A stretch of DNA of 64,000 nt. Origin: an uncultured Myxococcales bacterium. GTDB lineage: Bacteria; Myxococcota_A; UBA9042. Both the position numbers and the translations under genes were made by a program. Under the pieces are notes generated by a model. It was not told where the DNA came from. It searched no databases and was given only the letters and a program-made list of their open reading frames with translations. The stretch is taken from assembly GCA_903883645.1 (NCBI GenBank), contig CAISBR010000004.1, positions 13,461 to 77,460 of the forward strand, read 5' to 3'. Below are positions 21,732 to 44,211 of this stretch, piece after piece (within the stretch, counting starts at the first letter, position 1; the number at the start of each line of letters is the position of its first letter).

Positions 21732-22955
21732 ATGGAATTGCTGAGGTCGTTGCCAATGCCGCGTTGGGCCGCTATTGCCGGGGGACTTGGAGCGGGCGCG
21801 CTGGCGGCGCTGCTGGTCAATGGCCTACAACCGAGCAAGATACTTGACAAAACCTTGCCGATGCAGGCGATTTCGGAGCTGGATGGCAGGCTGAGCCAGG
21901 TTTGGCTGCAGTACTCGGCCGCGGCGCAAGCGGTGGTGGGGCCGGCGCAGCTCGAGTTCGTGCGGGCGCTGCCGGCGACGACGGCGCAGGTCTGGACGGT
22001 GGCGCGCGGCGAGGAAGCCAAGCAATTACGGAACTTTCTGAGCCATGGCGGGGTGACGCTAAACGCCCAGTCCCAGGTGATCGAGGTGCCCGGGCCGCTG
22101 ACGCCGTGGACCCGCGATCGGGCCCTGGCACTGCGCCGCGGCGGGCAGTTGGCGCTGCTAGTGCCGCCGGAACCGGGTGAGAGCTGGCCCGAGCGGCAGG
22201 GCGACTGGCACGCCGTGCAGTGGCTGGCAAGCGGGCGGCAGGGGACAAAGAGCCTAGAGCTGCCTATTGATTTTGACGCGGGCGACCTGATCTTGAGCGA
22301 CGAAGCGACGCTGTTTGACGCCAACTTACTGGCCAAAAACCGTGGGCGCGGTTTTGCGAATTTGGCGGAATTGGCCACGGCCGTGGCGGGTTGGACCGGG
22401 CGGCCGGCGCTGGCTTTGGGGCACGACGAGGGCGATGTGCCGCGCTACCACATGGCGATGTACGTGATGCCGCTGGGGCACAAGCGAGTGCTGGTGGGTG
22501 ATCCGCAGCTGGGGCGCGCACTTACTGGGCCTAGGTGGCAGCCCGGCGACCGCTCGCCCGACGACGATAGCCTGCTGCTGGCCGACGATTCGACGGTGAC
22601 TCAGGCGCGTTTTGACCGTGCAGCCAAAGACTTGCAAGCCCAAGGTTGGGCGGTGACGCGCGCGCCGGTGGTCGCTTTTGACGACCGCACCTACCTAAGC
22701 TACACCAATGTGGTCGCGGAGATCGGCGCTCAGGGGCCGCGGGTGTACCTGCCGCACTACGCGAGCGCGACCGACGCCGCCGATTCGGTGCTTGGCCGCC
22801 TAGACGCTGCGGGGCGTGCGCCGTGGCAGCGTGCGGGGTTCGCCGTCGTGCCGATTCATGTGGCCGGAGTGTGGCGACATCACGGAACAATCGGCTGCTT
22901 AGTCAATGTGTTGTGGCGCGGATCGCTGCCCGCAACGCCGGCAGTGTCGCGCTAG
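21732..22955 (+). CDS. Guanidino-modifying (agmatine/peptidylarginine deiminase-like) enzyme
   Basis: DAGDL, YHMAMY, SYTN and C-terminal HGTIGCL motifs of the pentein fold; N-terminal hydrophobic segment. Confidence 0.65.
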   Translation: MELLRSLPMPRWAAIAGGLGAGALAALLVNGLQPSKILDKTLPMQAISELDGRLSQVWLQYSAAAQAVVGPAQLEFVRALPATTAQVWTVARGEEAKQLRNFLSHGGVTLNAQSQVIEVPGPLTPWTRDRALALRRGGQLALLVPPEPGESWPERQGDWHAVQWLASGRQGTKSLELPIDFDAGDLILSDEATLFDANLLAKNRGRGFANLAELATAVAGWTGRPALALGHDEGDVPRYHMAMYVMPLGHKRVLVGDPQLGRALTGPRWQPGDRSPDDDSLLLADDSTVTQARFDRAAKDLQAQGWAVTRAPVVAFDDRTYLSYTNVVAEIGAQGPRVYLPHYASATDAADSVLGRLDAAGRAPWQRAGFAVVPIHVAGVWRHHGTIGCLVNVLWRGSLPATPAVSR

Positions 22956-23059
22956 GTGCGGTGCATCGCAGCAGGCGATTCTTGTGTCCGTGCCGCGGTC
23001 TGGGTAGCATGGCGGTAGCGGCTGGCGGCACAGGCACGCGGCGCCAAGGCGCAGTCAAT

Positions 23060-26000
23060 ATGCAAGGCCAGCACGGTCGGGGTCATTCTTTGAAGTACTT
23101 GTCTGTGATTAAGCACTTTACGGCCATGGTGGCGCTGGCAGCCCTAGCGGCCGGCTGCAGCGAAAACGTTGTCACCAGCGGCAGCAAGGCCTTGAGCGAC
23201 GCCAAAGCCGACCAGCAAGTGGTCGATCTGCCGCTGGCCGCCAGCAGCGATCAAGCGGCGTGGTTGTGCCCGGGCGGCTATGGCTGCGCGTGCGAAAACG
23301 ACGCTGCGTGCCCCAGTTCGGGCCTGTGCGTCGCCGACGGCAAGGGCCCGGCACACTGCGCGGTACCCTGCCCCGAGGGCTACTGTAGCGACGGCGAGGT
23401 GTGCCGACCGCTGCCCAGCGCGAAAGATGGCGGCAACTGGTGCATCGGCAAGACGGCCCACCTGTGCGATCCCTGCGCCACGACTGCGGATTGTGCCATT
23501 GCCGGCCACCCGCAGGCCCGCTGCGTCGACTATGGCAGCGACGGGCACTTCTGCGGCCTAGCCTGCCAGGGCGATGCCGAGTGCGGCGCGGGCTACCACT
23601 GCGGGCAAGTGAGCACAACAGATGGCAATTCGGCCATGCAGTGTGTCAAGAGCGGCGTTCAACCGGGCCAGCTGGGCGTGTGCGAGTGCAGCGCGCGTGC
23701 CAAGAGCCAAAAGCTTGAAACAGTATGCGGCGTAGGTACTTGCAAGGGCAAACGCAGCTGCAGCGACGCGGGCTTGGCGGCGTGCAGCGGCGCGGCACCG
23801 GGCAACGAAGAGTGCAACGGCCAAGACGACGACTGCGACGGCCAGACAGACGAGACCAGCTGCAGCGACAACAACCCTTGCACAATAGATAGTTGCGACC
23901 TATCCAAAGGCTGCAGCCACGCGCCCGCCGACAGTTTGCCTTGCTCCGACAAGACGGCGTGCACCGAGGGCGATGCCTGCAAGAACGGCGCGTGCCAGCC
24001 AGGCCCCGAGGTCAACTGCGACGACGCAAACCCATGCACCATCGAGACTTGTGACCCCATCAAGGGTTGCCAGACCAAGTTCAGCGACGGCAAGGCCTGC
24101 GACGACGGCGATGCCTGCACCAAAGACGAGGCGTGCAGCAGCGGCGCGTGCGCCAGCGGCAAGCCACTGATCTGCGACGACAAAAACCCTTGCACCGCCG
24201 ACACGTGCAGCGCCGGTGAATGCACCGCCACGCCGGTTGACGGCGCACCCTGCAGCGACGGCAGCGCCTGCACGGGCGCCGACACGTGCGCGGGCGGCAA
24301 ATGCGCCGGCACCACGCTGGTCTGCGACGACAAAAATGCCTGCACCATAGACAGTTGCGACCCTGCCAAGGGCTGCATCTATCTGCCCGGCCCCGCCACC
24401 GCCTGCGACGACGGCAACTTGTGCACCACCGGCGAGACCTGCCAAAGCGGCAACTGCACCGGCGGCACGACGCAAGCGTGCGCCAACGACAACGCGTGCG
24501 CCACCGCCGCGTGCCAGCCCGCGACCGGACTTTGCGCCATCAAAAAGAAGGCCGACGGCACCCTATGCAGCGACGGCAAGACCTGTACCGCCGAAGATCA
24601 TTGCGCTACGGGCGCTTGCGTGGCCAAGCTAAGCTGCGACGACAAGGACGCGTGCACCGCCGACCTCTGCGGCTTGAACGGCAACTGCACCCACGTGCCC
24701 ATTACGACGGGGAACTGCATACCAGCCGCCTGCGTCGGGGTCGACTGCGATGACAAAAATGGTTGCACGATCGATGGTTGCGACGGCAGCGGCTGCACCC
24801 ACACCGCGGCAGTGGGCCAAAGTTGCGACGACGCCAGCCTCTGCACGGTGGGCGACGTCTGCAGCCAGCAGGGCAAGTGCGCGGGTGCCAGCGTGATCTG
24901 CGGCGACGATAACCCTTGCACAACCGATAGTTGCGACCCACTCAAGGGCTGCAGCAACACCGAGAACAGCCTGCCTTGCGACTTGGGCGGCTGCCAGGCG
25001 GGCGCGTGCACTGCGGGAAGCTGCGTGGGCACGGGGCAAGTCGGCTGCGACGATAAGAGTCCTTGCACGAGCGACAGTTGTGAGGCCAGCGGCTGCGTAC
25101 ACACCCCCACCGGCGACGGCACCGGCTGCGACGATAGCGACGCCTGCAGCAGCGGCGACACGTGCAAAGGCGGGGTATGCGCCGGCACCGCGCTCGATTG
25201 CACCCTGCCCGGCAACCCTTGCGCCGTTGGCCAATGCGAGGGCAGCCCCGGCCAATGCACCGTAACCAAGCTAAACGACGGCACATCGTGCGACGACAGC
25301 AACACCTGCACCAAGGCCGACAGCTGCGCAAATGGCGCTTGCGGCGGCAGCGCGGTCGACTGCGACGACAAAAATGCTTGCACTACAGACAGTTGCGACA
25401 AGACGGCTGGCTGCCAACACGCCAACGCCAGCGACGGCAGCAGCTGCAGCGACAGCGACGCCTGCACGGTCAGCGACGCCTGCACCAGCGGCACCTGCAG
25501 CGGCACGGCCAAGGTCTGCGACGACAAGAATCCTTGCACCAGCGATGGTTGCGACCTCTCGGTCGGCTGCACGGTCGCGGCAGTGAGCGATGGCCAAACC
25601 TGCGACGACGGCGACACCTGCACCCTGAGCGATGCCTGCCAAAGCGGCAAATGTACAGGTAATCTTGGCGCAGACGCGGTCAGCTCGCTAGCCGGTGCGG
25701 GCAGCTCGGGCTACATAAACGGCAAGGGCGCGGCGGCCAAGTTCACCCTGCCCTCGGCCATCGCAGTGGGCGCGGACGGCACGTTGTACATCGCAGACGC
25801 CGCGGCCAATGGGGCGTATATCCGAAAAGTACTGCAAGATGGCACTGTTACCAACCTTGCCGGCAAGGGAATCGACGGTTTTGCCGATGCCAGCGGCGCT
25901 TTGGCCCAGTTTTGGAACCCCGCCGGCCTCGCGGTCGATGCCTCGGGCACGGTCTACGTGGCTGACCGGTTTAACCAGCGTATTCGCAAGATTACCGCAA

Positions 26001-26692
26001 TTGGGGTGGTCACTACGCTCGCTGGCGACGCGGCCGAGCCGGGCTTCTTGGATACCAAAGCCATCGGCGGCTACCAAGACGGCCAAGGCACGGCGGCGCG
26101 CTTTGACGAACCCGCCGCGATCGCGCTGGGCCCCGACGGCAAGCTGTACGTCGCCGAGGCCGCCAACCACAAGATCCGCGTGGTCGATAGCGACGGCACG
26201 GTCACGACCCTCGCCGGCAGCAGCCAAGGCTACCTCGACGGCACGGGCACTAGCGCCAAGTTCGACGCACCGCAGGGCATCGCTGTGGCGGCGAACGGCA
26301 CTGTCTACGTCGCCGACACGGGCAACAACCGCATCCGCGCCATCAGCGGCGGGGTAGTAACTACCTTTGCCGGAACGGGAATCTACGGATACGCCGACGA
26401 CCTGCTGCAAAACGCCTGCATCGCCGCCCCAGCCGGCATGAGCATCGGCAGCGACGGCACGCTGTACGCAACGGACGCATTCCACACCATCCGCGCGCTC
26501 AGCAGCACGGTCGTGACGACACTGGCGGGCATCGGCGGCGCGTCGGGCTACCTGGATGCGGCGCCGCTGCAAGCGAAGTTCAATGGCCCGCTCGGCGTGG
26601 TGTGGGCGGGCAAGGGGCTGTGGTTCGTAGCGGATACGCTCAACTTCCGCGTGCGCAAGCTTCTTTCGCCCACGCTGGCTTGCAAACCGTAG
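23060..26692 (+). CDS. Large lipoprotein: Dictyostelium-type Cys repeats plus C-terminal NHL beta-propeller
   Basis: Lipobox LAAGC; EECNGQDDDCDGQTDE; many CDDxNxCTxDxC repeats; NHL blades (G.AVDASGTVYVAD..N.RIR). Confidence 0.85.
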   Translation: MQGQHGRGHSLKYLSVIKHFTAMVALAALAAGCSENVVTSGSKALSDAKADQQVVDLPLAASSDQAAWLCPGGYGCACENDAACPSSGLCVADGKGPAHCAVPCPEGYCSDGEVCRPLPSAKDGGNWCIGKTAHLCDPCATTADCAIAGHPQARCVDYGSDGHFCGLACQGDAECGAGYHCGQVSTTDGNSAMQCVKSGVQPGQLGVCECSARAKSQKLETVCGVGTCKGKRSCSDAGLAACSGAAPGNEECNGQDDDCDGQTDETSCSDNNPCTIDSCDLSKGCSHAPADSLPCSDKTACTEGDACKNGACQPGPEVNCDDANPCTIETCDPIKGCQTKFSDGKACDDGDACTKDEACSSGACASGKPLICDDKNPCTADTCSAGECTATPVDGAPCSDGSACTGADTCAGGKCAGTTLVCDDKNACTIDSCDPAKGCIYLPGPATACDDGNLCTTGETCQSGNCTGGTTQACANDNACATAACQPATGLCAIKKKADGTLCSDGKTCTAEDHCATGACVAKLSCDDKDACTADLCGLNGNCTHVPITTGNCIPAACVGVDCDDKNGCTIDGCDGSGCTHTAAVGQSCDDASLCTVGDVCSQQGKCAGASVICGDDNPCTTDSCDPLKGCSNTENSLPCDLGGCQAGACTAGSCVGTGQVGCDDKSPCTSDSCEASGCVHTPTGDGTGCDDSDACSSGDTCKGGVCAGTALDCTLPGNPCAVGQCEGSPGQCTVTKLNDGTSCDDSNTCTKADSCANGACGGSAVDCDDKNACTTDSCDKTAGCQHANASDGSSCSDSDACTVSDACTSGTCSGTAKVCDDKNPCTSDGCDLSVGCTVAAVSDGQTCDDGDTCTLSDACQSGKCTGNLGADAVSSLAGAGSSGYINGKGAAAKFTLPSAIAVGADGTLYIADAAANGAYIRKVLQDGTVTNLAGKGIDGFADASGALAQFWNPAGLAVDASGTVYVADRFNQRIRKITAIGVVTTLAGDAAEPGFLDTKAIGGYQDGQGTAARFDEPAAIALGPDGKLYVAEAANHKIRVVDSDGTVTTLAGSSQGYLDGTGTSAKFDAPQGIAVAANGTVYVADTGNNRIRAISGGVVTTFAGTGIYGYADDLLQNACIAAPAGMSIGSDGTLYATDAFHTIRALSSTVVTTLAGIGGASGYLDAAPLQAKFNGPLGVVWAGKGLWFVADTLNFRVRKLLSPTLACKP

Positions 26693-26751
26693 CGCGCGCG
26701 ACCACCATCGCTGGCGCAAACCCTGGCGACCGCGCAGCGAGGCAACCGGCT

Positions 26752-27552
26752 ATGCATTCAGCGCGACTGCACGCAAGTAAGCCCTTTATCATCGCGATGT
26801 TGCTAGGCATCCTGGCGGGCTGCGATGTGCCCAGTGCCACCGGCGTGGCAACGGCTGCGGTGGCCGAAGCCGCGACGCCACTCGAAACCGGATCGCTCGA
26901 CGCCGTGCTCGAATACCGCGCGCCACCCGCAAAATCTGCGCCCAGGGTGGCCAAGGGCGAGCCCAGGCCCGAGCCCAAGCCGAAACTGGAACCCAAGCCG
27001 GACCCCAAGCCAACGGGGCCGAGCGCCGAGCTCCTGGCCGCCCAGGCCGAACTTGCGCGTATTCAGGGCGATACTGCGACGATTGCGGCGGCCGAAGCCG
27101 CCTTGCGCGCGGCCACTGCCGAAGCTGCGGCGGCCAATGCCCCCATCGCGGCCGAACTGGCTGCGGTATCGCGCAAGATCCAAGAGGTAGCGCTGAGCAT
27201 GGAGATTGAGTCGGCACAAGTGCGCCAAAACAAATGCTGTTCGGTGTGCGGCAACAGCAAGACCGAAATCGAGAGGAACGGCGAGCCGTTCGACAAGCAC
27301 CTGACCAACGTGAAGGGCACCATCGCCGTGTGCAAGCCGGGTAAGCTAGAGGCGGTACAACGCAAGTATGCTGGGCAGTTAGAGCCCCTGAAGCAACGGG
27401 CGGCCGAGCTGCGGGCCAAGGTGGGGCCGGCCTCGCAAGCGGCGCAAGCCAAGGTCAACGCGGCCCTGGCGGCGGTAGATGCGGCGAAGGTGGATCGCGC
27501 GCAAAAGCTGGCCGCGGCGCAGGCCAAGCTCGATGCAGCGGCGCACAAATAG
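26752..27552 (+). CDS. Coiled-coil lipoprotein with central Cys/His motif
   Basis: Lipobox LAGC, PK/PE linker, Ala-rich heptads around CCSVC...H...C. Confidence 0.65.
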   Translation: MHSARLHASKPFIIAMLLGILAGCDVPSATGVATAAVAEAATPLETGSLDAVLEYRAPPAKSAPRVAKGEPRPEPKPKLEPKPDPKPTGPSAELLAAQAELARIQGDTATIAAAEAALRAATAEAAAANAPIAAELAAVSRKIQEVALSMEIESAQVRQNKCCSVCGNSKTEIERNGEPFDKHLTNVKGTIAVCKPGKLEAVQRKYAGQLEPLKQRAAELRAKVGPASQAAQAKVNAALAAVDAAKVDRAQKLAAAQAKLDAAAHK

Positions 27553-27558: not shown

Positions 27559-29016
27559 CTAGATGCCGATCAGCACCTTGAGCAGCCTCTCAATCGGCTT
27601 GCCGTAGGGCGGATTGGTCATGCCGGCGGCGTTCATGCGGCTTTGGTAGAAGACGCCTTTGCAGTGCGACAGGGTGTCGAAGCCCACCTTGCCGTGGTAC
27701 GCGCCCATACCAGCCGGGCCAACTCCGCCAAAGGGCAGTTCTTCTTGGGCAATATGCAAGATGGTGTCGTTGACGGTGACGCCGCCCGAAGTGGTGCGCT
27801 CGACCACCGTGCCGATGCGGCCACTGTCGCGATCGAAGTAGTACAAGGCGAGGGGCCGCGGCCGGGCGTTCACGTAAGCAATGGCGCTGTCTAAGGAATC
27901 GTACTCGACGAGCGGCAGAATCGGCCCAAAAATCTCGTCTTGCAGCACGGCCATCGTGTCGTTTGCGCCAATCACCAGGGTGGGCACCAGCTTGCGCGCC
28001 GCGGGTTCAAAGGTCTCGCCGGCAGGATTGAGCTCGACCAGCTGTGCGCCACCGGCCTTGGCCTCGGCCAGATAGCCCTGCAAACGCTCGAATTGACGGT
28101 CGTTAATCACCGCACAGTAGTCGGGGCTCTGCGCCAGGGTCGGCCGCAGACGCGCGATCACGGCCTGGCAAGCCTGCACAAACGCTTGGGTCTGGCCGCG
28201 CGGCACCAGCACATAGTCGGGGGCGATGCAGGTCTGGCCGGCGTTCAGCAGCTTGCCCACTAAGATACGTTCGGCTGCTTTTTCAAGAGGATACGACCCA
28301 TGCACGATAACCGGCGACTTGCCGCCAAGCTCGAGCGTCACCGGTACCAAGTTCTCGGCGGCGGCCCTCATCACGGCGTGGCCCACGCGCGTCGATCCGG
28401 TAAATACAATATGATCGAGGGGTAAGCGGCACAGCGCCTCGGCCACCTCCGGCCCGCCCTGGACCACCTGCACCTGATCGGGGGCAAAGACCTCGCGGAT
28501 CATGCGCGCCAGCAGCTCGGACGTCTGCGGCGTAAACTCCGAAGGCTTGATGATCACGCGGTTACCCGCCGCCAGCGCACACACCAGCGGGGCCAGCGCC
28601 AGCTGCACGGGGTAGTTCCACGGCGCCAGAATCGCCACCACGCCCAGCGGCTGCGGATGCACCTTGTTGCTGCCCGGCTGAAAAGCCCAGTGCACCGGCA
28701 TGGTTCGCGGCCGTGCCCAGCGCGCTAGGTGCTGCCGCGCGTGCTTTAGGCCCGCCAGAGTAGGAAACAGGTCGGCCAGCAGCGTCTCGTGGCGCGAGCG
28801 GGTGCCAAAATCGGCCTGGATGGCGGCGACAATGTCTTCGGTGTGGGCGCGAATCACCCGTTCCAGGGCATCGAGCCACGCGCGCCGGCAGGCGACACTG
28901 GGCGGCGCTTCGCTGCGACTCAGCTGGTGCATCTTGGCGAAGGTTGTACGCATTTCGACGATGGCGGGCGACTCGTCGCGGTGGTCGTCTAAGTGGGCAA
29001 GCGTAGCGGTACTCAT
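27559..29016 (-). CDS. Aldehyde dehydrogenase (coniferyl-aldehyde dehydrogenase-like)
   Basis: PWNYP, FTGS, LELGGKSP, NAGQTCIAPDY, EIFGP, LPFGGVG; SD GGAGG. Confidence 0.93.
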   Translation of the reverse strand: MSTATLAHLDDHRDESPAIVEMRTTFAKMHQLSRSEAPPSVACRRAWLDALERVIRAHTEDIVAAIQADFGTRSRHETLLADLFPTLAGLKHARQHLARWARPRTMPVHWAFQPGSNKVHPQPLGVVAILAPWNYPVQLALAPLVCALAAGNRVIIKPSEFTPQTSELLARMIREVFAPDQVQVVQGGPEVAEALCRLPLDHIVFTGSTRVGHAVMRAAAENLVPVTLELGGKSPVIVHGSYPLEKAAERILVGKLLNAGQTCIAPDYVLVPRGQTQAFVQACQAVIARLRPTLAQSPDYCAVINDRQFERLQGYLAEAKAGGAQLVELNPAGETFEPAARKLVPTLVIGANDTMAVLQDEIFGPILPLVEYDSLDSAIAYVNARPRPLALYYFDRDSGRIGTVVERTTSGGVTVNDTILHIAQEELPFGGVGPAGMGAYHGKVGFDTLSHCKGVFYQSRMNAAGMTNPPYGKPIERLLKVLIGI

Positions 29017-29058
29017 GGAGCCTCCTGGCAAGAAGATGGCGGATTCTGTGCGGTTTGA

Positions 29059-29694
29059 CTAGAGCGAGGTAAGAATCTGCAGCAACTGTGCGGCATCTGC
29101 GGCCGTATGGCGAAGATGCGCAACCTCGGCCGGGCGAAAGCCCCACTGTACCCCCACGGGCCGCATCCCGGCATTGACGGCCGTTTGCAGGTCGACTTCG
29201 GTATCGCCCACAAACCAGCAATCTGCAGGCTGTACACCGAGTTGCCGGCAGATATCGAGCGCCGCCGCCGGATCGGGCTTGCGCGGCCAGTCGGGGCGCT
29301 GCCCCACCACCGCACGCCACGGAACTCGGCCAAAGTAGTGCTGAACCAGGGCCTGGGTCGCCGGGTGAGGCTTATTCGACAGCACCGCGAGCGGCACGCC
29401 GGCCAGCACCAGCTGATCGAGCACGGACTCTAGGCCCGGATAGACACGAGTCTGGTCGCACATCCTTTGTGTATACAAGATCTTGTAGCGGGCTAGCCAC
29501 TCTAACTGCGGCTCGGCCGGCGCTGTCGCCCGCTGCAGCAGCATCTCGGCCCCTTCGCCAACAAAGTGGTAATACTCGGCCACGGGGTGCACAGGCAGGT
29601 TCACTTCGGCGAGCAGTGCGTTCGCCGCCGCCGCGATGTCGGCCACGGAGTCGATGAGCGTGCCGTCGAGGTCAAAGATCACCGCACGGGGCAT
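29059..29694 (-). CDS. HAD-family hydrolase (phosphoglycolate phosphatase-like)
   Basis: FDLDGTL, LSNK, KPDP, VGDTEVD. Confidence 0.9.
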   Translation of the reverse strand: MPRAVIFDLDGTLIDSVADIAAAANALLAEVNLPVHPVAEYYHFVGEGAEMLLQRATAPAEPQLEWLARYKILYTQRMCDQTRVYPGLESVLDQLVLAGVPLAVLSNKPHPATQALVQHYFGRVPWRAVVGQRPDWPRKPDPAAALDICRQLGVQPADCWFVGDTEVDLQTAVNAGMRPVGVQWGFRPAEVAHLRHTAADAAQLLQILTSL

Positions 29695-29715
29695 AAGATT
29701 TTCCTGAGCAAGGCA

Positions 29716-31527
29716 TTAAGCCGAGAGTTTGCGGGCAATTAGCATCCATGCCAGCGGCAGCACAAACGCACCGATGGTGGCAAGTGCCCCCCAATTGCGC
29801 AAGCGGGCGGCCAGATCGTCGCGACCGACAGCATGGGCGCGGTACTCGGCGATAACTTGCAGCGTGGCGATGCCGATCGAGGCATAGGCGGCAAAATACG
29901 ACCAATCGACGACCGTCAGGTAGCCGACTTCGGGCAGGTGGCCGGCCGTATTGACCTGCAACTCGACCGCGCATAGCAGGGCCAACACCGTTAAAAGCAG
30001 CTTGGCATCTAGCTTTTCGGCGGGGATGAGGCTCGCTGCCAGCGCCATTAGCACCATCAGCAGCAGGGGCGCCAAGTCGGCCACGGCAAAACGCAGCACT
30101 TCGCGGCGCACATCGACAACAAAGTTGTAACGACTAAAGAATTCGGTGGGCCCATACTGCGACTTGACCTCTTCGGAGCGCACCGCCACCAACTGCCAGT
30201 CGTGCAGCGAGAAGTTAGGGCCCAGGCGCTGGTCGAGGGTCAGCTTGGCCTCGGGGTGCCAGCGCGTCTCGCAGTGGAACACCAGCTGCCCGTACTGCAA
30301 CAGAGGGTGTTCAAACGCTAATTCGAAGCGCTGCGCATCGAACGGGTAGGCGTGCAGGTCAAAATGGCTGCGGGCGCGCCCGTGCATCCGCCAGTTGAGG
30401 CTGTGCCACGGACCGTGCGGCTCGTAGCCGTTGGGGGTGATCTCGACCTCGTCGGCGTTCATCACCTCGAACGGCCGCGGATCTTCGGGACCCATGCGCG
30501 GATCGAGCCAGCGCAGCTCAAGCGTCGCATCAAAGGTAAAGGTGCCTTTTTGCAGGTCAATCGCGCTAATCGCAATCAGCCAAACCGTTACGCGCACATC
30601 GATGGGCTTGTCGAGCGGCCCACCGCGGGCATAGGCATCGGCGGCACCCAGATGCAGGGGCAGCGGCGAGGGCATGGCGGCGGTGGCGCGCTGGAGACTG
30701 CCCAGACCGGGATCGGCGGTGCGCAGTAAATCGCTTTGATTCCAAATGGCTTCGACCAGATCGTCGACCTGCAGGCGCGGCAAGGCAGCCCGCCCCACCA
30801 GCACCTGCGGAACGGACAGCGTCACCACCTGTTTGTCGCCAAGCTTTTGAAATTGAGCGCGATCCACGGTCGCCACCTGCCACGGCCAGGCCGACTCGGG
30901 CAGTTCTTTGGTCGACGGCAGCGACAGCCAGTGATCGCCCGCCGCCAAAGCCGCTGTAAGGCTCGCATCCTCGGGCGCCACCACGGCAAACGCGGCATCG
31001 ACCTGCCCGGCGTGCAGCGCGGCCAGAGGGTCGGCGGACATCTGCACTTGCACCGCAGCCCGCGCCAGGCCGGCGTGCTCAAGCAGCACCAGCAGCGCCT
31101 CGCGATCGCCCGTCGCCGTCGCCGCCAGGGCCACCCGCTTACCCTGCAACTGGTCGAGCGTCTTCAGATCTTGCCGCACCAGCACGGCCAGGTAGGTGGT
31201 ATGCAGCACGGCAATGGCCCGCAAGTCCTTGTGCGGCTCTTGGAAGCGCCCGGTACCCAGCCACGCCGCCCGCGCCAAGTCAGCCCGCGCTACGGCCAGC
31301 GCATGACCCGGCTGAGCGAGCAATTTCTCTAGATTATCCAGCGATCCCGCAGTGGCAGTGGGCGTCACTACCTCGCCGCCGGGCACCGCCTGCGCCGCCT
31401 GCGCCAGACCCGCCGCCAAGTGCGCCTCGGCCTTGCCTGCCGGCCCCGAAAAGATGGGCAGCGCGTGCGCCGCTGGGGCCAGCAGCAGCAGCGCAAAGAG
31501 CAGGCAAGCCTGGGCCCATGCTCTCAT
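29716..31527 (-). CDS. TAXI solute-binding domain fused to a pentameric ligand-gated ion channel (GLIC/ELIC-like)
   Basis: N-half TAGSLDN, LQGKRVA, GQVDAAF, PLHLGA; C-half LRWLDPR, FDLHAYPFDAQ Pro-loop, four TM helices, LPEVGYLT M2-M3 loop. Confidence 0.85.
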   Translation of the reverse strand: MRAWAQACLLFALLLLAPAAHALPIFSGPAGKAEAHLAAGLAQAAQAVPGGEVVTPTATAGSLDNLEKLLAQPGHALAVARADLARAAWLGTGRFQEPHKDLRAIAVLHTTYLAVLVRQDLKTLDQLQGKRVALAATATGDREALLVLLEHAGLARAAVQVQMSADPLAALHAGQVDAAFAVVAPEDASLTAALAAGDHWLSLPSTKELPESAWPWQVATVDRAQFQKLGDKQVVTLSVPQVLVGRAALPRLQVDDLVEAIWNQSDLLRTADPGLGSLQRATAAMPSPLPLHLGAADAYARGGPLDKPIDVRVTVWLIAISAIDLQKGTFTFDATLELRWLDPRMGPEDPRPFEVMNADEVEITPNGYEPHGPWHSLNWRMHGRARSHFDLHAYPFDAQRFELAFEHPLLQYGQLVFHCETRWHPEAKLTLDQRLGPNFSLHDWQLVAVRSEEVKSQYGPTEFFSRYNFVVDVRREVLRFAVADLAPLLLMVLMALAASLIPAEKLDAKLLLTVLALLCAVELQVNTAGHLPEVGYLTVVDWSYFAAYASIGIATLQVIAEYRAHAVGRDDLAARLRNWGALATIGAFVLPLAWMLIARKLSA

Positions 31528-33710
31528 TTCCACGCCTCGGGCAACTGCAAGCCAAACTGCTGCACCAAGAAGGTCAGCCGGTCGGTGGCCTCGTCGATCT
31601 GCTTGGTGGTGGGCTTGCCGGCCCCATGCCCAGCGCGCGTCTCGATCCGCACCCGAATCGGCGCCGGACCGCCCTGAGCCGCCTGCAACGCCGCTGTAAA
31701 CTTGAACGAATGCGCCGGCACCACCCGATCGTCGTGGTCGCCCGTGGTCACCAGCGTGGCGGGATAGGCCGTACCCTTGTGCAAGTTATGAAGAGGACTG
31801 TACTTGTATAGCCACTCGAAGGCCTTGGCATCGGCACTGCTGCCGTACTCGGGCACCCAGCCCCAGCCGATGGTGAACAGGTGGTAGCGCAGCATGTCCA
31901 TCACCCCCACCGCCGGCAGAGCAGCGCCAAATAATTCAGGCCGTTGCGCTAGACACGCGCCGACGAGCAGCCCGCCGTTGCTACCGCCCGCGATCGCCAA
32001 ATGCGCCGAGGTCGTCCACTTCTCGCGGGTGAGCAGCTCGGCCGAGGCAATGAAGTCGTCAAAAACATTCTGCTTCTTTCCTAGCTGCCCAGCTTGATGC
32101 CAAGCCTCGCCAAACTCGGCACCGCCGCGCAGCACCGCCACCGCCAGCACGCCGCCCGCCTCGATCCAAGCTTGCAGGTCGGGCTTGTAAAACGGCGTCA
32201 TCTCTACAGAAAACCCGCCATAGCCGTACAGGTAGGCCGGCGCCGAGCCATCGCGGGGCAGGTCGCTGCGGGCAGTGACAAAAATCGGCACCCGGGTACC
32301 ATCTTTGCTAGTCGCATAGCGCAGTTGCGTACTGTACTTTTCGGCGGGCAGACCGCGCTTGGCGTCGAAACGCACCTGCAGCTCGCCCTTGTCGAGGTTG
32401 GCGTGGTATACCCGCGCCGGCGCCAAGAAGTCTACGTATGCAAAGAACAAATTGGCATCACCCGCGTGGCCCGACAGCCCCACCACCGAGCCCAAACGCG
32501 GAAACGTCGGCGCGGGCAGCGGCTTGCCCTGATAGTCCACGAATTCGAGCTGATGCGAGGCATCGACCAGCTTGCCCAAGACGATACCCTTGCCCGCCAA
32601 CACCGCGAACGACAAGGTAGAATCCGCCTCGCCCTGCACTTGCCGCCACCCCGCAGGCAGCGGCCCCACCGGCTTGTCGCTGTCGAGATTTGCCGCCTTG
32701 TGCAGGTCGAGCGCCAGCAGCCGGCCCCGCGGCGCACCCCAATCACTGCGCAAGAACAGCTGGTTACTAGCCACACCCGCCACTTCGAACGCGCCGCCAA
32801 AGCCGCTCGCCAGCTGCCGATTGGGACCCAGACCTTTGGTCGTAATTTCGCGAACATCCAAGCCATTCTTCGACTCGGCGCCGCGCGAGGTGGTCAAAAG
32901 CCACCAGTGCCCGTCGTCGCTCACCTCGACGCCAAAGCCCCACTCGGCCTGCGCGGCGTTCTCGTGCACCACCGCGTCGGCCGACTGCGGCGTGCCCAAT
33001 TTGTGGAAGCACACCTTCTGGAACTTGTTGACACCTGTAAGCGTTTCGCCCGCTTTGGGCGCGTCGTAGCGGGAATACCAAAAGCCGCTGCCGTCGGGAT
33101 GCCAGGCGATCGAGCTAAACTTGACCCATTGCAGTACGTCGGGCCGATCGGCGCCGCTGTCGACCTCGCGCACGTGGATCTCGTTCCAGTCCGAGCCGCC
33201 GCTCGCCAGGGCATAGCCCAGCAACTTGCCGTCGTCACTGGGCGAAATCGTCTGCAAGAACAGGGTGCCGTCGCCCGCCGCCCGATTGGGATCGTACAGA
33301 ACCTTGCACGTGCGCTCGTCTTGCGGCGCCCAGCACAGCACGGCCTGATTCTGCAGCCCGTCGTTGTGCCGCCAAAATGCCCGCCCGCCCCGCAGCGTAG
33401 GCGCCGTTTCTTTCGGAAAATCCCAGATCTGCGCGAGATGCCGCGCCAACACCGGCCGCTGTGGCACCCGATCGAGCAGCGCCCGCGTGGCCAGGTTCTG
33501 CGCTTGCACCCACGCCTGCGTCTCGGCACTGTCTTGCTCGAGCCAGCGGTACGGGTCGGCGACTTTGTGGCCATGGTAGTCGTCAACCTGGTCGCTGGTG
33601 CGCGTCGGCGGCGGCTGCGGCAGCTCGGATTTCGCAGGCGTCGCAGGCTGTTGAGCAGGCGAGGAACAGGCGACGGCAAGGGCAAGCAACCAAAGCAGCG
33701 ATGGGCGCAT
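31524..33710 (-). CDS. Prolyl oligopeptidase (S9A) lipoprotein
   Basis: Lipobox AVAC; ADPYRWLE, YGYGGF, GGSNGG, DDRV, AGHG triad motifs. Confidence 0.95.
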   Translation of the reverse strand: MRPSLLWLLALAVACSSPAQQPATPAKSELPQPPPTRTSDQVDDYHGHKVADPYRWLEQDSAETQAWVQAQNLATRALLDRVPQRPVLARHLAQIWDFPKETAPTLRGGRAFWRHNDGLQNQAVLCWAPQDERTCKVLYDPNRAAGDGTLFLQTISPSDDGKLLGYALASGGSDWNEIHVREVDSGADRPDVLQWVKFSSIAWHPDGSGFWYSRYDAPKAGETLTGVNKFQKVCFHKLGTPQSADAVVHENAAQAEWGFGVEVSDDGHWWLLTTSRGAESKNGLDVREITTKGLGPNRQLASGFGGAFEVAGVASNQLFLRSDWGAPRGRLLALDLHKAANLDSDKPVGPLPAGWRQVQGEADSTLSFAVLAGKGIVLGKLVDASHQLEFVDYQGKPLPAPTFPRLGSVVGLSGHAGDANLFFAYVDFLAPARVYHANLDKGELQVRFDAKRGLPAEKYSTQLRYATSKDGTRVPIFVTARSDLPRDGSAPAYLYGYGGFSVEMTPFYKPDLQAWIEAGGVLAVAVLRGGAEFGEAWHQAGQLGKKQNVFDDFIASAELLTREKWTTSAHLAIAGGSNGGLLVGACLAQRPELFGAALPAVGVMDMLRYHLFTIGWGWVPEYGSSADAKAFEWLYKYSPLHNLHKGTAYPATLVTTGDHDDRVVPAHSFKFTAALQAAQGGPAPIRVRIETRAGHGAGKPTTKQIDEATDRLTFLVQQFGLQLPEAWK

Positions 33711-34663: not shown

Positions 34664-35025
34664 GGTTTGCAATAGCCCTTGCCGTTGCAGCCGGCGCCAC
34701 TTGCTCCGCCCGGGCAGTCGGCGGCAGTTTTGCACGGCAGCGTACAGCGTTTGATGCCATCGCCGTAGGCAAAACAGGTCATGGCCGACGGGCAAACGCC
34801 CGCTGCGGGGCACGCCTCGCCAAAGCCCGCTGGGCCCAGGTGATCCCCGGCGCCGGCATCGGCAGCCGTGCCTGTGGCCGCATTGGCCAGGGCCGTGGCG
34901 TCGGTAGCGGTCGCGGCGGGTTGGGCGGCAGTCGATGCAGACTCGGTCTTGGCGCACCCAGATAGTGCCCAGCTCGCCAACGCCCCCAGCAGCAGCCCTT
35001 GCAGTACCTTGTTTACCCGCCTCAT
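34660..35025 (-). CDS. Small lipoprotein with C-terminal six-Cys module
   Basis: Lipobox LSGC, Ala/Thr linker, module ending CPGGASGAGCNGKGYCKP; ATGA overlap with the upstream gene. Confidence 0.8.
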   Translation of the reverse strand: MRRVNKVLQGLLLGALASWALSGCAKTESASTAAQPAATATDATALANAATGTAADAGAGDHLGPAGFGEACPAAGVCPSAMTCFAYGDGIKRCTLPCKTAADCPGGASGAGCNGKGYCKP

Positions 35026-35795
35026 CGCGCCCCCTTGCCGACCCCGCCGCCCACGACGAGCAGGCAGCCGGCGTCTTGGATATCGCCGCCCTTGCTGGCG
35101 TTTCGCCCCGTTCCGCATTGCGCGCCGAGCCACAGCGGCCCCAGTGTGCGCCGTGCACCAAGGTGGATGTGGTCCGCTGTGCCCTCGCCACCGGCTAGGA
35201 CAGCGCTGCGCACGCCCCACGACTCGGCCGAAATGGTCCACACATCAGTTAGTTGCCAGGCCGCCGCAGCTTCGTAGCGAGTCCGGCGGTCGTCGCCCGT
35301 CAGTCCGTCGATCGCCAGCACGGCCGAAAGATGCACCCGCCCGAACCGCCCCGCCACACCCGCGCCCAGTTGTGCCGTCGACGGCCGCGTCGCCTGCAGG
35401 CGTACCCGGGCGCCCGCCGTCAAGAAGGGGTGCCAGTTCTCGCCGACCGGCAGCACCACCGTCGCCAGCGGCGCTAGGCCCGCCACGCGCACATCGCTGC
35501 TCGAGAGTTGGCGAAAAGCGCCCTCTAGGCTGACTTGCAGCGGCCCAACTAGCCCCGCGCGCAGGCTAAGCCGTTCGTTTACGCCCTGATACTGCCCCGT
35601 GCCGCTGCCCACCCCACCCTTGACGGGCGAGAGCGGCCGCACCACTTCGGCCCCCAGGCTGGATTGAACCTCGAGCGGTCGGAGGCTGATGGTGTCTTGC
35701 ACGCGCACATAGGCCGGAGCATCGGCATACGCCGTCGAGCCAGCGACCGCGCTGACTAGCAGGACTGCAAAGACGAAGGCACCGCGCGTCGCCAT
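35022..35795 (-). CDS. Putative outer-membrane beta-barrel protein
   Basis: Signal peptide (AYA) and about 10-12 amphipathic strands (YEAAAAWQL, WTISAESWG). Confidence 0.6.
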   Translation of the reverse strand: MATRGAFVFAVLLVSAVAGSTAYADAPAYVRVQDTISLRPLEVQSSLGAEVVRPLSPVKGGVGSGTGQYQGVNERLSLRAGLVGPLQVSLEGAFRQLSSSDVRVAGLAPLATVVLPVGENWHPFLTAGARVRLQATRPSTAQLGAGVAGRFGRVHLSAVLAIDGLTGDDRRTRYEAAAAWQLTDVWTISAESWGVRSAVLAGGEGTADHIHLGARRTLGPLWLGAQCGTGRNASKGGDIQDAGCLLVVGGGVGKGAR

Positions 35796-35802: not shown

Positions 35803-37542
35803 TTACTGCTTGATGCAGTAGATGAGACCTACATAAGGCGGCAAGTGATTGGTGAAATTGGTCCACGTCCACGTGTTTTGGCCGCCCGAGGCGACGGTCT
35901 GCTGCGACTCGCCCTGCCATTCGAAGCCGACGTAGCTGTACGAACCCGGCGAGTGCCAAGTGCCCGGGCCACGCTGGGTGTAGCCGCCGATGCGGTAGGT
36001 GTGCGAGCCGCCCACGCTGCCGAGCGCCACTGTGCCACCCTGGGGCAAAGGACCGACGCCGAGGGCAAGGCGACCGCGCATGTCGGGGGTACCGTTTGCC
36101 CCATCCGCCGCCACCCAGCCCGCCGGGCAGGTATTCAGGTTGAAAGGCGCGACCATGCCCGACAAGAACGAGGCGCCGCCCACCGTCAGGCCGCCATCGA
36201 CGATGAGGTCGCCCTTAATCTCGATCTTCTTGTTCGACAGCGTTTGGATGTTCACGGACCAGCTGAACTTGCCGTCGAAACCACCGGAGCCGCCACCCGA
36301 TTTCAGGTCCTTGACCGTAATGGACCACTGCCCGGCGATATCTTTGCCGACCCAGTCCAAGTCCATATTGCCAGAAACCAACGCCAAGTCTTTGTTGAAG
36401 TTGGTGGTCAGGGCCGTGCCGGTCTTGTTGCCGTTGTAAAGGACATACGGTGTCGCCATCTGCGGGCCATAGAGCTCGATGCGCACACCCGACATGTCCG
36501 AGTTGGTCACCTGCACGTTGATCCAAATCTTTTGCGCTTGGCCGATGCTCGGAAAGTTAAGCGTGTCGGTGGTGCCTGGGCCAAGGCCGTCTGGAATCAC
36601 GATATTGCTCTTGCCGGCAGTGGAGTCTGTGAATTGATTCCAGATTAGACCGTTCGAGACCTCGTCGATCAAGTCTGGCGCGATGGCCGATGCGACGCAC
36701 GCGTACGAGCCGTCGCTGTTGATGCCGTTCATAACGAGGCCGGTGCCGCAAGTCTTGCCGAGCTGGGTCGGCGTGGGCGTGCCGCTCAGGTCGGCATAGC
36801 TGCCGCTGGCGGCGACCTTGGCCAGGCTCGACGCTTTGACGTAGCCCGCCAAGTCGGCACTTTTTGCGTATGCAGCGAGGTCGGTTAGCTTGGCGTAGCC
36901 ACCTAAGTCGGTGAGCTTGGCGAACGCGCCGAGGTCGCTCGACTTGGCATAGGCGGCGAGATCGGTGAGCTTGGCGAGGCCGCTCAGGTCGGGACCGCCG
37001 TTCAGGTCGGTGAATGCTCCCGTGGTGGCCACTTTGGCAAGGTCAGATACCTTAGCGTAACCACTCATAATTTTTGGATCAACTTGGGCCGCCGTAATGC
37101 AGCCCGTGCAATCCATGCTCTCGGCCACGGCGGCGCGCATGGCAAAGGCTGTAGCCAAAAGCGGTCGGCGCGGCAGTTCCGTATCGGTTCCCACTTGCAA
37201 ACCAACCCATAGCGCGGCACCGGTCAAGACCGAGCCAGTGAGCGGCGACTTGGCGCCCAGAACGGCGCTCCATGTGCCAGCTTTGACGCCGACCGGGAGC
37301 GGGCCTTCCATCCAGATGGGGTTACCACCAGACTCATCTTTGTAAATCGCAAAGGTAAGCTGGTAATTACCGTCGGGAGCAGCACCTCCGGTCGAAGTCA
37401 GCGTACCTTCAATGCCGATGGTAGGGGGGACCGCTGCCTGGGCCGAGGCACTACCGAACAGGAGGCAGATCATGGCGACCTGCCAGCTCGCGCGCGCTGC
37501 CCAGATGCGCGCCGCCGTGGTCCAATTTCCTTTGCTTTCCAT
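35803..37542 (-). CDS. Secreted tail-fibre-like protein with P-domain-like sandwich and C-terminal tail-collar domain
   Basis: Signal peptide AQA; DLxxYAKxx repeats; LAKVAASGSYADLSG; GQWSITVKD; CPAGW..DG.NGTPDMRGR...LPPYVGLIYCIK. Confidence 0.75.
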   Translation of the reverse strand: MESKGNWTTAARIWAARASWQVAMICLLFGSASAQAAVPPTIGIEGTLTSTGGAAPDGNYQLTFAIYKDESGGNPIWMEGPLPVGVKAGTWSAVLGAKSPLTGSVLTGAALWVGLQVGTDTELPRRPLLATAFAMRAAVAESMDCTGCITAAQVDPKIMSGYAKVSDLAKVATTGAFTDLNGGPDLSGLAKLTDLAAYAKSSDLGAFAKLTDLGGYAKLTDLAAYAKSADLAGYVKASSLAKVAASGSYADLSGTPTPTQLGKTCGTGLVMNGINSDGSYACVASAIAPDLIDEVSNGLIWNQFTDSTAGKSNIVIPDGLGPGTTDTLNFPSIGQAQKIWINVQVTNSDMSGVRIELYGPQMATPYVLYNGNKTGTALTTNFNKDLALVSGNMDLDWVGKDIAGQWSITVKDLKSGGGSGGFDGKFSWSVNIQTLSNKKIEIKGDLIVDGGLTVGGASFLSGMVAPFNLNTCPAGWVAADGANGTPDMRGRLALGVGPLPQGGTVALGSVGGSHTYRIGGYTQRGPGTWHSPGSYSYVGFEWQGESQQTVASGGQNTWTWTNFTNHLPPYVGLIYCIKQ

Positions 37543-39836: not shown

Positions 39837-39884
39837 GCCGCGTCGCCTGCGACGGTCGCCCCCGGCAACGCCCATCGCGCTACC

Positions 39885-44045: not shown

Positions 44046-44091
44046 GATTCTCCAAGACAACCGGGCATTCGGGCGCCAAATAGGGGTCAAG

Positions 44092-44120: not shown

Positions 44121-44211
44121 GCAAAACCAGGTGCCCAGCTTGTGACATTTGTGCAAACGCTGGCCGCGCGCCGCTTCCCCTTGCCGCCACAATTCCGCTA
44201 ACCTAGGGGCC

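Follow-up and report, generated by a model that had tools for sequence, protein, structure and literature searches.

An uncultured myxobacterium carries a single gene in which a TAXI-type solute-binding domain is joined to a complete pentameric ligand-gated ion channel (pLGIC). Taken together with the whole of the mechanism proposed below, its product is probably a cation channel fitted with an accessory periplasmic TAXI sensor or modulator. The gene lies in the window, the 64,000-nucleotide stretch of DNA analysed here, with the following features:

29716..31527 (-): TAXI-pLGIC gene, whole; 603 codons plus the TAA stop at 29716-29718 (ORF listing)
31462..31527 (-): predicted signal peptide, residues 1-22 (sequence reading; helix 2-15 in the AF2 model)
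30622..31461 (-): TAXI / NMT1_3 solute-binding (Venus-flytrap) domain, residues 23-302 (Pfam, NCBIfam, alignment, Foldseek)
30604..30621 (-): linker GGPLDK, residues 303-308, between the last TAXI helix and strand beta1 of the extracellular domain (ECD)
30100..30603 (-): pLGIC extracellular beta-sandwich domain, residues 309-476 (alignment, AF2, Foldseek)
30028..30099 (-): M1, residues 477-500, with the conserved P487 (alignment, AF2)
29944..30012 (-): M2 pore helix, residues 506-528 (AF2 helix and alignments)
29830..29913 (-): M3, residues 539-566 (AF2)
29722..29820 (-): M4, residues 570-602 (AF2)
31524..33710 (-): S9 prolyl-oligopeptidase-family (POP) gene, upstream and translationally coupled (Pfam; ATGA overlap)
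29059..29694 (-): HAD-family (phosphoglycolate-phosphatase-like) gene, starting 21 nt past the channel stop
27559..29031 (-): aldehyde dehydrogenase (ALDH) gene, the last of the apparent operon (profile search)

The gene, its locus and its channel half

The sequence-only reading had claimed one uninterrupted ORF with a signal peptide, a TAXI domain and a complete pLGIC, and this is borne out by the ORF itself (29716..31533, minus strand), by profiles and by the AF2 model. Translation from the ATG at 31527 yields 603 amino acids; relatives have their start Met at the equivalent position of the alignment, a GAGG stands 8 nt upstream, and the ATG shares 4 nt with the TGA of the upstream gene (ATGA). 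The N-terminus reads as a Sec-type signal peptide, MRAWAQACLLFALLLLAPAAHA, probably cleaved after AHA.

The upstream gene codes for a POP-family protein (Peptidase_S9_N 3e-88, Peptidase_S9 1e-56 in Pfam) with a lipoprotein-like N-terminus. The nearest NCBIfam model to the ALDH gene is of the MdlD type, with a score under its cut-off, and no equivalog-level NCBIfam name was obtained for POP, HAD or ALDH. Synteny of POP with the channel gene was seen in 6 genomes of the genus, and the POP-HAD-ALDH context is limited to six genomes of one genus. Neighbours at other TAXI-pLGIC loci are unrelated (an MtrC-like cytochrome, a DHO_dh-like gene, an Asp/Asn hydroxylase and unknowns), and no conserved neighbour that would name a ligand was found across the loci compared. 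Among the sequencing runs found to hold the gene, none was of RNA. The host is a lake-water myxobacterium.

The AF2 model of the full protein (pLDDT 95.4, pTM 0.88) ends in four helices, with an M3-M4 loop of 3 residues and without an intracellular domain. That its C-terminal half is a pLGIC, as first read from the motifs, is confirmed by the fold: Foldseek aligned it with GLIC over 316 columns (E 1e-21, TM(target) 0.79-0.81, rmsd ~3 A). A phmmer search of the PDB matched a GLIC/GABA-A chimera (3e-10), DeCLIC (8.5e-10) and ELIC (~1e-8). Curated profiles under-reach in this divergent member: Neur_chan_LBD (Pfam) matches residues 306-345 at 23.3 bits, under its cut-off of 26, and LGIC_1 and LIC cover residues 389-577 at ~1e-12 with scores of 47 and 45.8 against cut-offs of 500 and 280. 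It is therefore fold and motifs that decide the family call. The previously noted WLDPR (340-344) and YPFD (Pro-loop, 394-397) are both there, as are the pre-M1 R475 and the M1 P487; Pro-loop [FY]PFD, pre-M1 Arg, M1 Pro and WxDxR in beta2 are what we take to be the hallmark positions of pLGICs. The hallmarks of the family can also be drawn from Tasneem 2005 (PMC549065). P395, D397, R475, P487, W340, R466 and Y548 are invariant in the alignment of 23 full-length relatives, and 12 TAXI-less, 17 clade-A and 12 clade-B sequences have the same machinery residues.

The M2 sequence DAKLLLTVLALLxAVELQV is conserved across clade A. Its register was set by alignments to the GABA-A alpha1 TMD of the chimera 6cdu and to ELIC 2yks, with the prime numbering that we assume for these references, and gives D507 (-2'), K509 (0'), L511 (2'), L515 (6'), L518 (9'), E522 (13') and V525 (16'). 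Leu at both 2' and 6' is unusual. L518 corresponds to the 9' Leu hydrophobic gate of GABA-A alpha1 and ELIC, and D507 falls at the -2' charged ring. From the acidic -2' position, an additional ring of Glu at 13' and the lack of a Pro-Ala-Arg motif we infer that the channel is cation-selective. At canonical positions of the ECD, residues E406, H407, Y458, R466, Y467 and W374 are kept with or without TAXI, which suggests that the ECD has a conserved site of its own. Loop C is 11 residues shorter in clade A than in the Planctomycetota clade (alignment). Complex prediction for a pair of TAXI-plus-ECD chains (residues 23-476) scored 0.00 and is not evidence either way.

The TAXI domain and its pocket

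The N-terminal domain combines membership of the TAXI sequence family with the two-lobe alpha/beta fold. Pfam NMT1_3 (PF16868) matches residues 39-299 (9.4e-31, 107.9 bits vs a cut-off of 27), NCBIfam TRAP_TAXI (TIGR02122) scores 101.1 bits vs a cut-off of 84.35, and the TAXI half of the AF2 model superposes on VcGluP 9ibo with a TM of 0.81 and an rmsd of 3.1 A over 297 columns (Foldseek). Of the two domain assignments made from the letters, the TAXI one thus has a profile above its cut-off, while the channel one falls short in Neur_chan_LBD. No Pfam match to a Peripla_BP_6/ANF_receptor domain was found in the protein. The TAXI domain is contiguous, with a single join to the channel at ECD strand beta1, and in the AF2 model the linker is flanked by helix 293-302 and strand 309-324. 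Linker residue P308 is invariant in the 23 full-length relatives, and the mature ECD of TAXI-less orthologues begins at KPIDVRV, equivalent to the linker boundary.

The usual TAXI ligand motifs had been read as replaced by GKAEA, RAD and ATGD, and a ligand other than the usual one had been proposed. These replacements hold in the alignment to solved TAXI proteins, where GKAEA corresponds to TGVYF of Thermus, RAD to QSD/QND, and ATGD to GSGD of VcGluP and GSGT of Thermus. Among the glutamate-binding determinants of VcGluP, which include Y45 and Q93 (PMC11574862), these two are replaced by E34 and R81, and equivalents of S75, H123, G156 and D157 are present. Judging from the two replacements in the alignment, the pocket differs from that of glutamate-type TAXIs and the ligand would not be glutamate-like, in agreement with the earlier proposal. 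In clade A, Arg occupies the R81 position in 15/15 sequences and Tyr the Y45 position in 0/15, and D141 is mostly conserved; the clade-invariant Arg81 suggests that the predicted ligand may be an anion or a carboxylate. The Planctomycetota clade has, at the VcGluP determinants, Y in 8, S in 11, Q in 9 and E in 9 of 12 sequences. Within clade A, mean pairwise identity is 0.36 for the pocket columns vs 0.36 for the remaining TAXI domain, an equality that ligand diversification and a decayed domain without a ligand would explain equally well. Mean identity is 0.36 for TAXI vs 0.52 for the channel half, the TAXI domain being the faster-evolving.

The absence of a TRAP permease from the neighbouring genes, already remarked on, extends to the whole genome, which is 95% complete: profile searches found 0 DctM (PF06808) and 0 GltS permeases and no second NMT1_3 domain, the TAXI-pLGIC gene being the sole one. 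The PF06808 control was positive in 8/14 named genomes. A hidden TRAP or GltS partner is rejected for this assembly by these genome-wide zero counts. As the genome is without DctM, GltS or another TAXI, the TAXI domain is no transporter subunit here.

Proposed role of the domain in gating

In the mechanism that we propose, the polypeptide would be secreted, anchored in the membrane and assembled as a homopentamer, like all pLGICs, to form a Pro-loop channel selective for cations, with a crown of five Venus-flytrap domains of TAXI origin on its periplasmic side. Recruited from transport, TAXI would thereby have become a periplasmic accessory that senses or modulates, in a position analogous to that of the DeCLIC N-terminal domain (NTD) or the NMDA receptor amino-terminal domain. 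A small molecule of the putative class discussed above would bind the remodelled TAXI cleft, upon which the clamshell would close or reorient; this movement could travel through the 6-residue linker to ECD strand beta1 and bias the ECD-to-M2 gating machinery already in the channel core. Opening would let cations flow, and the change in membrane potential might act as a fast chemosensory output. The short conserved linker and the pTM of 0.88 would also be compatible with tight, obligatory coupling in the forms that keep TAXI.

The channel occurs without TAXI in 9/20 matching genomes of the order, and no NMT1_3 domain was found anywhere in the channel-alone genomes tested (5/5). In G028, G029 and G031, of the same genus, the TAXI-less channel occupies the same POP-channel-HAD-ALDH locus. 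TAXI-less rows are nested within TAXI-bearing clades of the channel tree, and the two trees, TAXI and channel, are congruent within clade A. The AU test, for which groups were named after the tree had been seen, rejected a single clade of all 12 TAXI-less rows (p-AU 0.0074). It did not reject g1 and g11/g13 TAXI-less rows as one clade (p 0.06), so that the statistics demand no more than two losses. Kin have lost the TAXI domain two or more times, one of these losses being at the syntenic locus of the same genus. Pore and gating residues, M2 included, are unchanged in the TAXI-less orthologues, and the channel core therefore does not need the clamshell. Since the identity of the TAXI-less channels in the channel half is just 55-56%, this loss is no proof of a merely modulatory role here.

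These orthologues bear directly on the alternative that the five tethered clamshells are primary, obligatory agonist sensors, whose closure gates the pore and for which the ECD merely transmits. A conserved linker of just 6 residues, a confident AF2 placement of the domains (pTM 0.88) and the persistence of the fusion over two phyla and ~21 clusters would all suit such coupling; the loop C of clade A, shorter by 11 residues, might mean a reduced orthosteric site, and a defined agonist is plausible in the Planctomycetota clade, which keeps a glutamate-type pocket. We nevertheless consider this reading unlikely, as syntenic TAXI-less orthologues share the pore and gating residues, the canonical ECD positions are conserved with or without TAXI, and the clade-A pocket shows no extra conservation. 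The iGluR-style logic put forward by the sequence-only reading is likewise not upheld: the clamshell is N-terminal to a complete ECD and held by one 6-residue tether, unlike the iGluR LBD with its two linkers, the topology is shared with the DeCLIC NTD and with the iGluR amino-terminal domain, which is modulatory, and TAXI-less orthologues in the same operon keep M2 and the gating residues. That TAXI closure on a periplasmic metabolite, possibly a product of the coupled periplasmic POP, should be the agonist event that opens the pentameric pore is unlikely. If true, clamshell-closure agonism would be a gating mode known for no pLGIC, the natural TAXI-less orthologues would be built-in controls, and the Planctomycetota sister clade would represent a bacterial 'glutamate-gated pLGIC via a clamshell'.

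The myxobacterial TAXI domain could instead be a degenerate clamshell that binds no small molecule and is being lost, with a role in assembly or stability, in protein-protein docking or as a structural vestibule. Replacement of both key VcGluP determinants (E34 and R81 might pair), pocket columns no better conserved than the rest of the domain, faster evolution than the channel half (0.36 vs 0.52) and repeated loss are what such decay could leave. Against these stand the invariance of R81 (15/15) with D141 mostly kept, scores above the curated TAXI cut-offs with a confident fold, and retention in several genera down to 39% identity, and we regard degeneration as decidedly improbable. Still further from our reading is ligand capture (Tasneem et al. 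2005), put forward for PBP-fused and PBP-operonic pLGICs (PMC549065), in which the fused domain would concentrate or pre-select a ligand acting at the channel's own ECD site. The residues of that site are indeed conserved; closed Venus-flytrap proteins, however, bury their ligand (VcGluP, PMC11574862) and no hand-over mechanism is known for pLGICs, which makes this idea very hard to credit.

A chimeric assembly or a frameshift-fused gene pair has practically no chance of being correct and is rejected, since contigs from other studies' runs cross the whole gene without indels, the same fusion recurs in other genomes (11/37 of the order, plus Planctomycetota MAGs) and AF2 yields one continuous, confident model. 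Logan contigs of three runs, of which X5 and X6 appear to be a single data set, cover 29000-32500 in one piece, and a contig of a fourth run (X10) extends across 30420-31782. Neither indels nor joints were reported in these Logan contigs, and the join is not an artefact of assembly. The single contigs from other studies' runs that cover the whole gene differ by 5 substitutions and 0 indels, and the contigs crossing the TAXI-channel join represent independent lake metagenomes.

Known systems and spread of the fusion

In iGluRs (GluR0, AMPA/NMDA), bacterial binding-protein folds serve as the extracellular sensors of an ion channel, and in NMDA receptors the amino-terminal domain, a clamshell that sits on the ligand-binding layer, acts as an allosteric modulator of gating. 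Modulation by this domain is cited in PMC12664993. The iGluR pore is a tetrameric P-loop pore that interrupts the gating clamshell via two linkers, whereas the TAXI-pLGIC is a pentameric Pro-loop scaffold with a single N-terminal tether, and hence ATD-like, not LBD-like.

Accessory-domain control of pLGIC gating is an open structural question. DeCLIC (Desulfofustis; PDB 6v4a, 9ftg), a prokaryotic pLGIC too, has a large periplasmic NTD on top of its ECD; this NTD modulates gating kinetics (PMC12664993) and is the precedent for a modulatory NTD in the family (PMC12664993, PMC9897478). According to papers of 2022-2026, DeCLIC is the sole NTD-bearing pLGIC studied, and its NTD is without a defined small-molecule ligand. 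That NTD consists of two jelly-roll lobes binding Ca2+ and is not a Venus-flytrap small-molecule binder; the DeCLIC match is limited to the channel half, the NTD of our protein being an alpha/beta TAXI domain and not a tandem jelly-roll.

PBP-I fusions to bacterial pLGICs were reported from sequence analysis by Tasneem, Iyer, Jakobsson & Aravind in 2005, with multi-site allosteric sensing proposed for them (PMC549065). These PBP-I (Peripla_BP_6)-pLGICs of alpha-proteobacteria and cyanobacteria likewise place an N-terminal periplasmic Venus-flytrap on a complete bacterial pLGIC and are, like the TAXI-pLGIC, predicted multi-site sensors known from sequence alone; they were recovered here as P0061, P0072 and P0119, with Atlas clusters of 92 and 70 members. 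They differ in the binding domain (class I LIVBP-like vs TAXI/NMT1_3), in the length of the NTD (~400 aa vs ~280 aa), in the channel clade and in the host phyla. The novelty seen by the sequence-only reading was therefore overstated as regards fusions of this kind (PMC549065) and holds for the TAXI-pLGIC, of which it knew no characterised example: our literature searches found no published characterisation of the architecture, and a term search of the main text of Jaiteh et al. 2016 found no mention of an NTD. The protein is an uncharacterised TAXI variant, PBP-fused bacterial pLGICs as such being already known.

VcGluP (9ibo/8s4j) and TtGluBP of Thermus (1us4) share the TAXI fold with the TAXI-pLGIC and are free proteins serving TRAP permeases, whereas TAXI here is fused to a channel. 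TAXI-GltS fusions (Lachnospiraceae; PMC12344293) also carry an N-terminal TAXI on a non-TRAP membrane protein, the partner there being a secondary transporter, and TAXI domains therefore get re-deployed. The present fusion widens their uses beyond TRAP and GltS transport. As a rare natural design, it might reveal how pLGICs are controlled by a sensor domain added to them. It provides a well-understood Venus-flytrap on a rigid tether, which a ligand can drive between open and closed states; TAXI-less orthologues that occur naturally in the same operon, as a comparison; and a sister clade whose pocket is recognisably of the amino-acid type.

Homologues of this architecture, found in 11 of the 37 genomes of the order, form ~21 clusters at 50% identity among Myxococcota and Planctomycetota MAGs, and the fusion has been kept in several genera over a long divergence, down to 39% identity. 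A systematic mis-annotation of TAXI-pLGICs in databases is hereby corrected. The named members seen are all titled "TAXI family TRAP transporter solute-binding subunit", with the channel never mentioned.

Structure, authenticity and spread of the fusion

The TAXI-pLGIC gene occupies a single open frame in the ORF listing (window 29716..31533, minus strand). Its ATG at 31527 gives a 603-residue product and is equivalent to the start Met of relatives; it shares an ATGA with the stop codon (TGA) of the gene before it, and a GAGG lies 8 nt upstream. By its sequence the N-terminus is a Sec-type signal peptide. An AlphaFold2 model of the full protein, built from 103 aligned relatives (mean pLDDT 95.4, pTM 0.88), consists of a two-lobe alpha/beta domain, then a beta-sandwich, then four long helices.

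Domains of the product
Residues 39-299: NMT1_3 (Pfam), 9.4e-31, 107.9 bits, cut-off 27
Residues 9-299: TRAP_TAXI (NCBIfam), 101.1 bits, cut-off 84.35
Residues 477-500, 506-528, 539-566 and 570-602: four C-terminal helices (AlphaFold2 model)

The pLGIC profiles match the C-terminal half weakly: Neur_chan_LBD obtains 23.3 bits where 26 are required, and LGIC_1 and LIC, at about 1e-12, stay well short of their thresholds. Among PDB sequences, phmmer related this half to a GLIC/GABA-A chimera (3e-10), DeCLIC (8.5e-10) and ELIC (about 1e-8), and the N-terminal half to the TAXI proteins 4ddd, 8s4j/9ibo and 1us4 (7e-12 to 4e-9). Foldseek searches of the PDB aligned the C-terminal half with entire GLIC chains over 316 columns (E 1e-21, target-normalised TM 0.79-0.81, rmsd about 3 A) and the N-terminal half with glutamate-bound VcGluP over 297 columns (9ibo; E 4e-20, TM 0.81, rmsd 3.1 A). 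The sequence-only reading, which had described an uninterrupted ORF with signal peptide, TAXI domain and complete pLGIC, was thus right in every structural particular.

Logan contigs of three lake or freshwater metagenome runs from other studies (X5, X6 and X7, the first two apparently a single data set) span 29000-32500 unbroken; they differ by five substitutions and show neither indels nor joints. A contig of 1363 bases from run X10 bridges 30420-31782. These contigs, and the presence of the fusion in 11 of 37 genomes of the order, rule out an assembly artefact. When 1.84 billion cluster representatives were scanned exhaustively with HMMER, about 21 clusters (50% identity) aligned with both the TAXI and the channel half (P0006, P0008, P0010, P0012, P0013, P0017-P0029 and P0035, with P0010 and P0028 N-truncated). 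Named members are MAGs of Myxococcota (clade A, that of the query) and Planctomycetota (clade B). Among 401 genomes sampled evenly from the phylum, 31 match at E 1e-15 or better; the full-length matches number nine, all in the query's family. Every named member of the TAXI-pLGIC family (P0003, P0007, P0008, P0017, P0021, P0023 and P0026) is labelled in databases either 'TAXI family TRAP transporter solute-binding subunit' or hypothetical, and nothing more. Annotation overlooks the channel half because its scores fall under curated cut-offs.

The channel half and its TAXI-less relatives

Residues invariant in 23 full-length relatives include W340 (in WLDPR), P395 and D397 (YPFD Pro-loop), R466, R475 (pre-M1), P487 (M1) and Y548. 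All are kept in 12 TAXI-less, 17 clade-A and 12 clade-B sequences, as are E406, H407, Y458, Y467, P532, G535 and Y536, and the channel half looks functional by this measure. M2 was placed in register by aligning it with ELIC 2yks and with the GABA-A alpha1 TMD in chimera 6cdu, using the prime numbering of these reference channels.

M2 register
-2' D507, -1' A508, 0' K509, 2' L511
6' L515, 9' L518, 13' E522, 16' V525

The motif DAKLLLTVLALLxAVELQV is conserved across all clade A. It combines an acidic -2' ring with the lack of any Pro-Ala-Arg motif, which points to a probable preference for cations; the 2' and 6' leucines and the ring of Glu at 13' are unusual. A genome of the same genus (G024) carries, beside its TAXI-pLGIC, a second, distant pLGIC-like gene (G024:C119:45256-46203; 30% identity to residues 293-596).

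We propose that the protein assembles as a homopentamer, forming a pLGIC that is probably cation-selective and is topped by TAXI clamshells as an accessory crown. These would respond to a small molecule in the periplasm and, by way of a rigid 6-residue tether, bias the gating machinery that the intact ECD possesses.

The channel half occurs alone in nine of the 20 matching genomes of the order (42-56% identity), in frames of about 330-390 aa, each with its own signal peptide; the five channel-only genomes tested have no NMT1_3 domain anywhere. Three genomes of the window's genus (G028, G029 and G031) carry the TAXI-less channel in the identical order of S9 prolyl oligopeptidase, channel, HAD phosphatase and aldehyde dehydrogenase genes, with flanking genes 56-63% identical to those of the window and a mature ECD beginning at the equivalent KPIDVRV. 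A maximum-likelihood tree built from 44 rows of channel-half sequence has the TAXI-less rows nested in TAXI-bearing clades; five presence/absence changes are needed, of which starred branches force at least four. In the TAXI-domain tree clade A is one group (99), with the internal subclades of the channel tree. This congruence indicates that the two parts evolved together, and loss is the parsimonious reading of TAXI absence. With groups chosen after the tree was known, the AU test rejected a single clade holding the 12 TAXI-less rows of clade A (p 0.0074) and did not reject joining those of g1 and g11/g13 (p 0.06), a comparison that supports at least two losses. TAXI evolves faster than the channel half (mean pairwise identity in clade A 0.36 vs 0.52).

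The TAXI-less kin are a natural deletion experiment and offer unusually good natural controls. Set beside these channels, with their conserved machinery, an obligatory gating role of the clamshell, a rival to the modulator reading, seems unlikely.

The TAXI-less channel of genus g13 has different neighbours from those of the POP-HAD-ALDH operon: an ORF of about 262-270 aa comes after it, then one of 569 aa. In locus L020 these scan as a TetR-family regulator (5193-6005) and an aldehyde-dehydrogenase-like protein (3361-5070); L024 has a pair of the same size and position (5126-5914 and 3363-5072).

Partners and pocket of the TAXI half

The gene's own genome, which is 95% complete (244 contigs, 5.99 Mb), offers the TAXI half no transporter to serve as a subunit: it contains no DctM-family TRAP permease, in a search whose control was positive in 8 of 14 named genomes, and no GltS symporter. 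Nor does it hold a second NMT1_3 domain or a second Neur_chan_LBD match. The remark that no TRAP permease lies near the gene therefore extends genome-wide.

The glutamate site of VcGluP, as defined by Davies et al. (2024, PMC11574862), depends chiefly on Y45 and Q93, and S40, V44, Y46, S75, H123, E125, G156, D157, Y200, M201 and G203 also contribute to it. We mapped the pocket through HMMER alignments to 8s4j and 1us4 (chain offset of 28, confirmed on S75, Q93, H123, E125, G156, D157 and Y200).

VcGluP pocket residues and their query equivalents (HMMER alignment)
Y45: E34
Q93: R81
S75: S62
H123: H109
E125: T111
G156-D157: G140-D141
Y200-M201: A181-V182

In clade B the canonical residues persist (Tyr at Y45 in 8/12, Ser75 in 11/12, Gln at Q93 in 9/12, Glu125 in 9/12), and these proteins look like amino-acid (glutamate-type) sensors. 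Clade A has Arg at Q93 in 15/15 and Tyr at Y45 in 0/15. The motif substitutions noted earlier are real; among them, ATGD differs little from the GSGD of VcGluP itself. The remodelled clade-A pocket with its invariant Arg suggests a different ligand, possibly anionic. A degenerate clade-A site is also possible because pocket columns are conserved no more than the rest of the domain (0.36 vs 0.36; clade B 0.43 vs 0.31). That TAXI is a degenerate pseudo-SBP nevertheless appears improbable, and transfer of its ligand to the ECD highly improbable.

The translationally coupled upstream gene encodes a lipoprotein-like periplasmic prolyl oligopeptidase, which hints, as a lead only, at peptide-derived ligands for the proposed sensor. 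This coupling is seen with and without TAXI, in one genus only, and is therefore more informative on the core of the channel than on its clamshell.

Precedents, related architectures and other features

Tasneem et al. (2005, PMC549065) described bacterial pLGICs of Magnetospirillum and Bradyrhizobium that are fused to PBP-I domains, as well as PBP-II genes in operons, and proposed an interplay of several ligand-binding domains. The PBP-I architecture was recovered here as Peripla_BP_6-pLGIC proteins (P0061, P0072 and P0119), with Atlas clusters of 92 and 70 members. As far as the available text of the 2022-2026 papers goes (PMC9897478; PMC12664993; 10.1101/2025.02.27.640520), DeCLIC is the sole characterised NTD-bearing pLGIC. 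TAXI-pLGIC is not mentioned in the main texts found by full-text search (supplementary tables could hold a listing), nor in a term search of the main text of the TAXI-GltS paper (PMC12344293). What is new is the TAXI-type NTD; binding-protein-fused prokaryotic pLGICs are already known and experimentally untouched. The observation behind the sequence-only reading stands, its interpretation only in part: the fusion is real, but its general type had been described. Nor does the topology support 'iGluR-style logic' as worded. TAXI has the topological arrangement of the DeCLIC NTD and of the NMDA receptor amino-terminal domain, stacked on its ligand-binding layer, and not that of the iGluR LBD, into which the pore is set between two linkers.

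In a third, numerous architecture the order is reversed: the pLGIC (ECD and TMD) comes first, and an SBP_bac_5 domain (family-5 peptide/nickel solute-binding) forms the C-terminus, which after M4 would also be periplasmic. It is carried by P0042, P0043, P0034, many 790-920-aa rows of the HMMER scan and Myxococcota genomes G237, G151, G136, G317 and G255. P0108 (704 aa) and P0110 (727 aa) combine TAXI/NMT1_3 with a K+-channel pore (Ion_trans_2), RCK/TrkA_N and Castor_Poll_mid; TAXI clamshells are thus joined to a second, unrelated ion-channel class.

Other ORFs of the window
22823-26692, plus: 1289 aa, eight Dictyostelium CTDC repeats and NHL/teneurin-NHL repeats; probably a large secreted repeat protein
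26602-27552, plus: 316 aa, Ala-rich, neither Pfam (E 0.001 or better) nor NCBIfam match; may not be a real gene
35022-35795, minus: 257 aa, without Pfam match at E 0.001 or better
35803-37542, minus: 579 aa, likewise
37674-39875, minus: 733 aa, likewise

Strong AT-skew excursions occur at window 50001-52000 (+0.33) and 40001-44000 (-0.31/-0.32), the latter coinciding with a 1442-aa ORF (39885-44213, minus strand).
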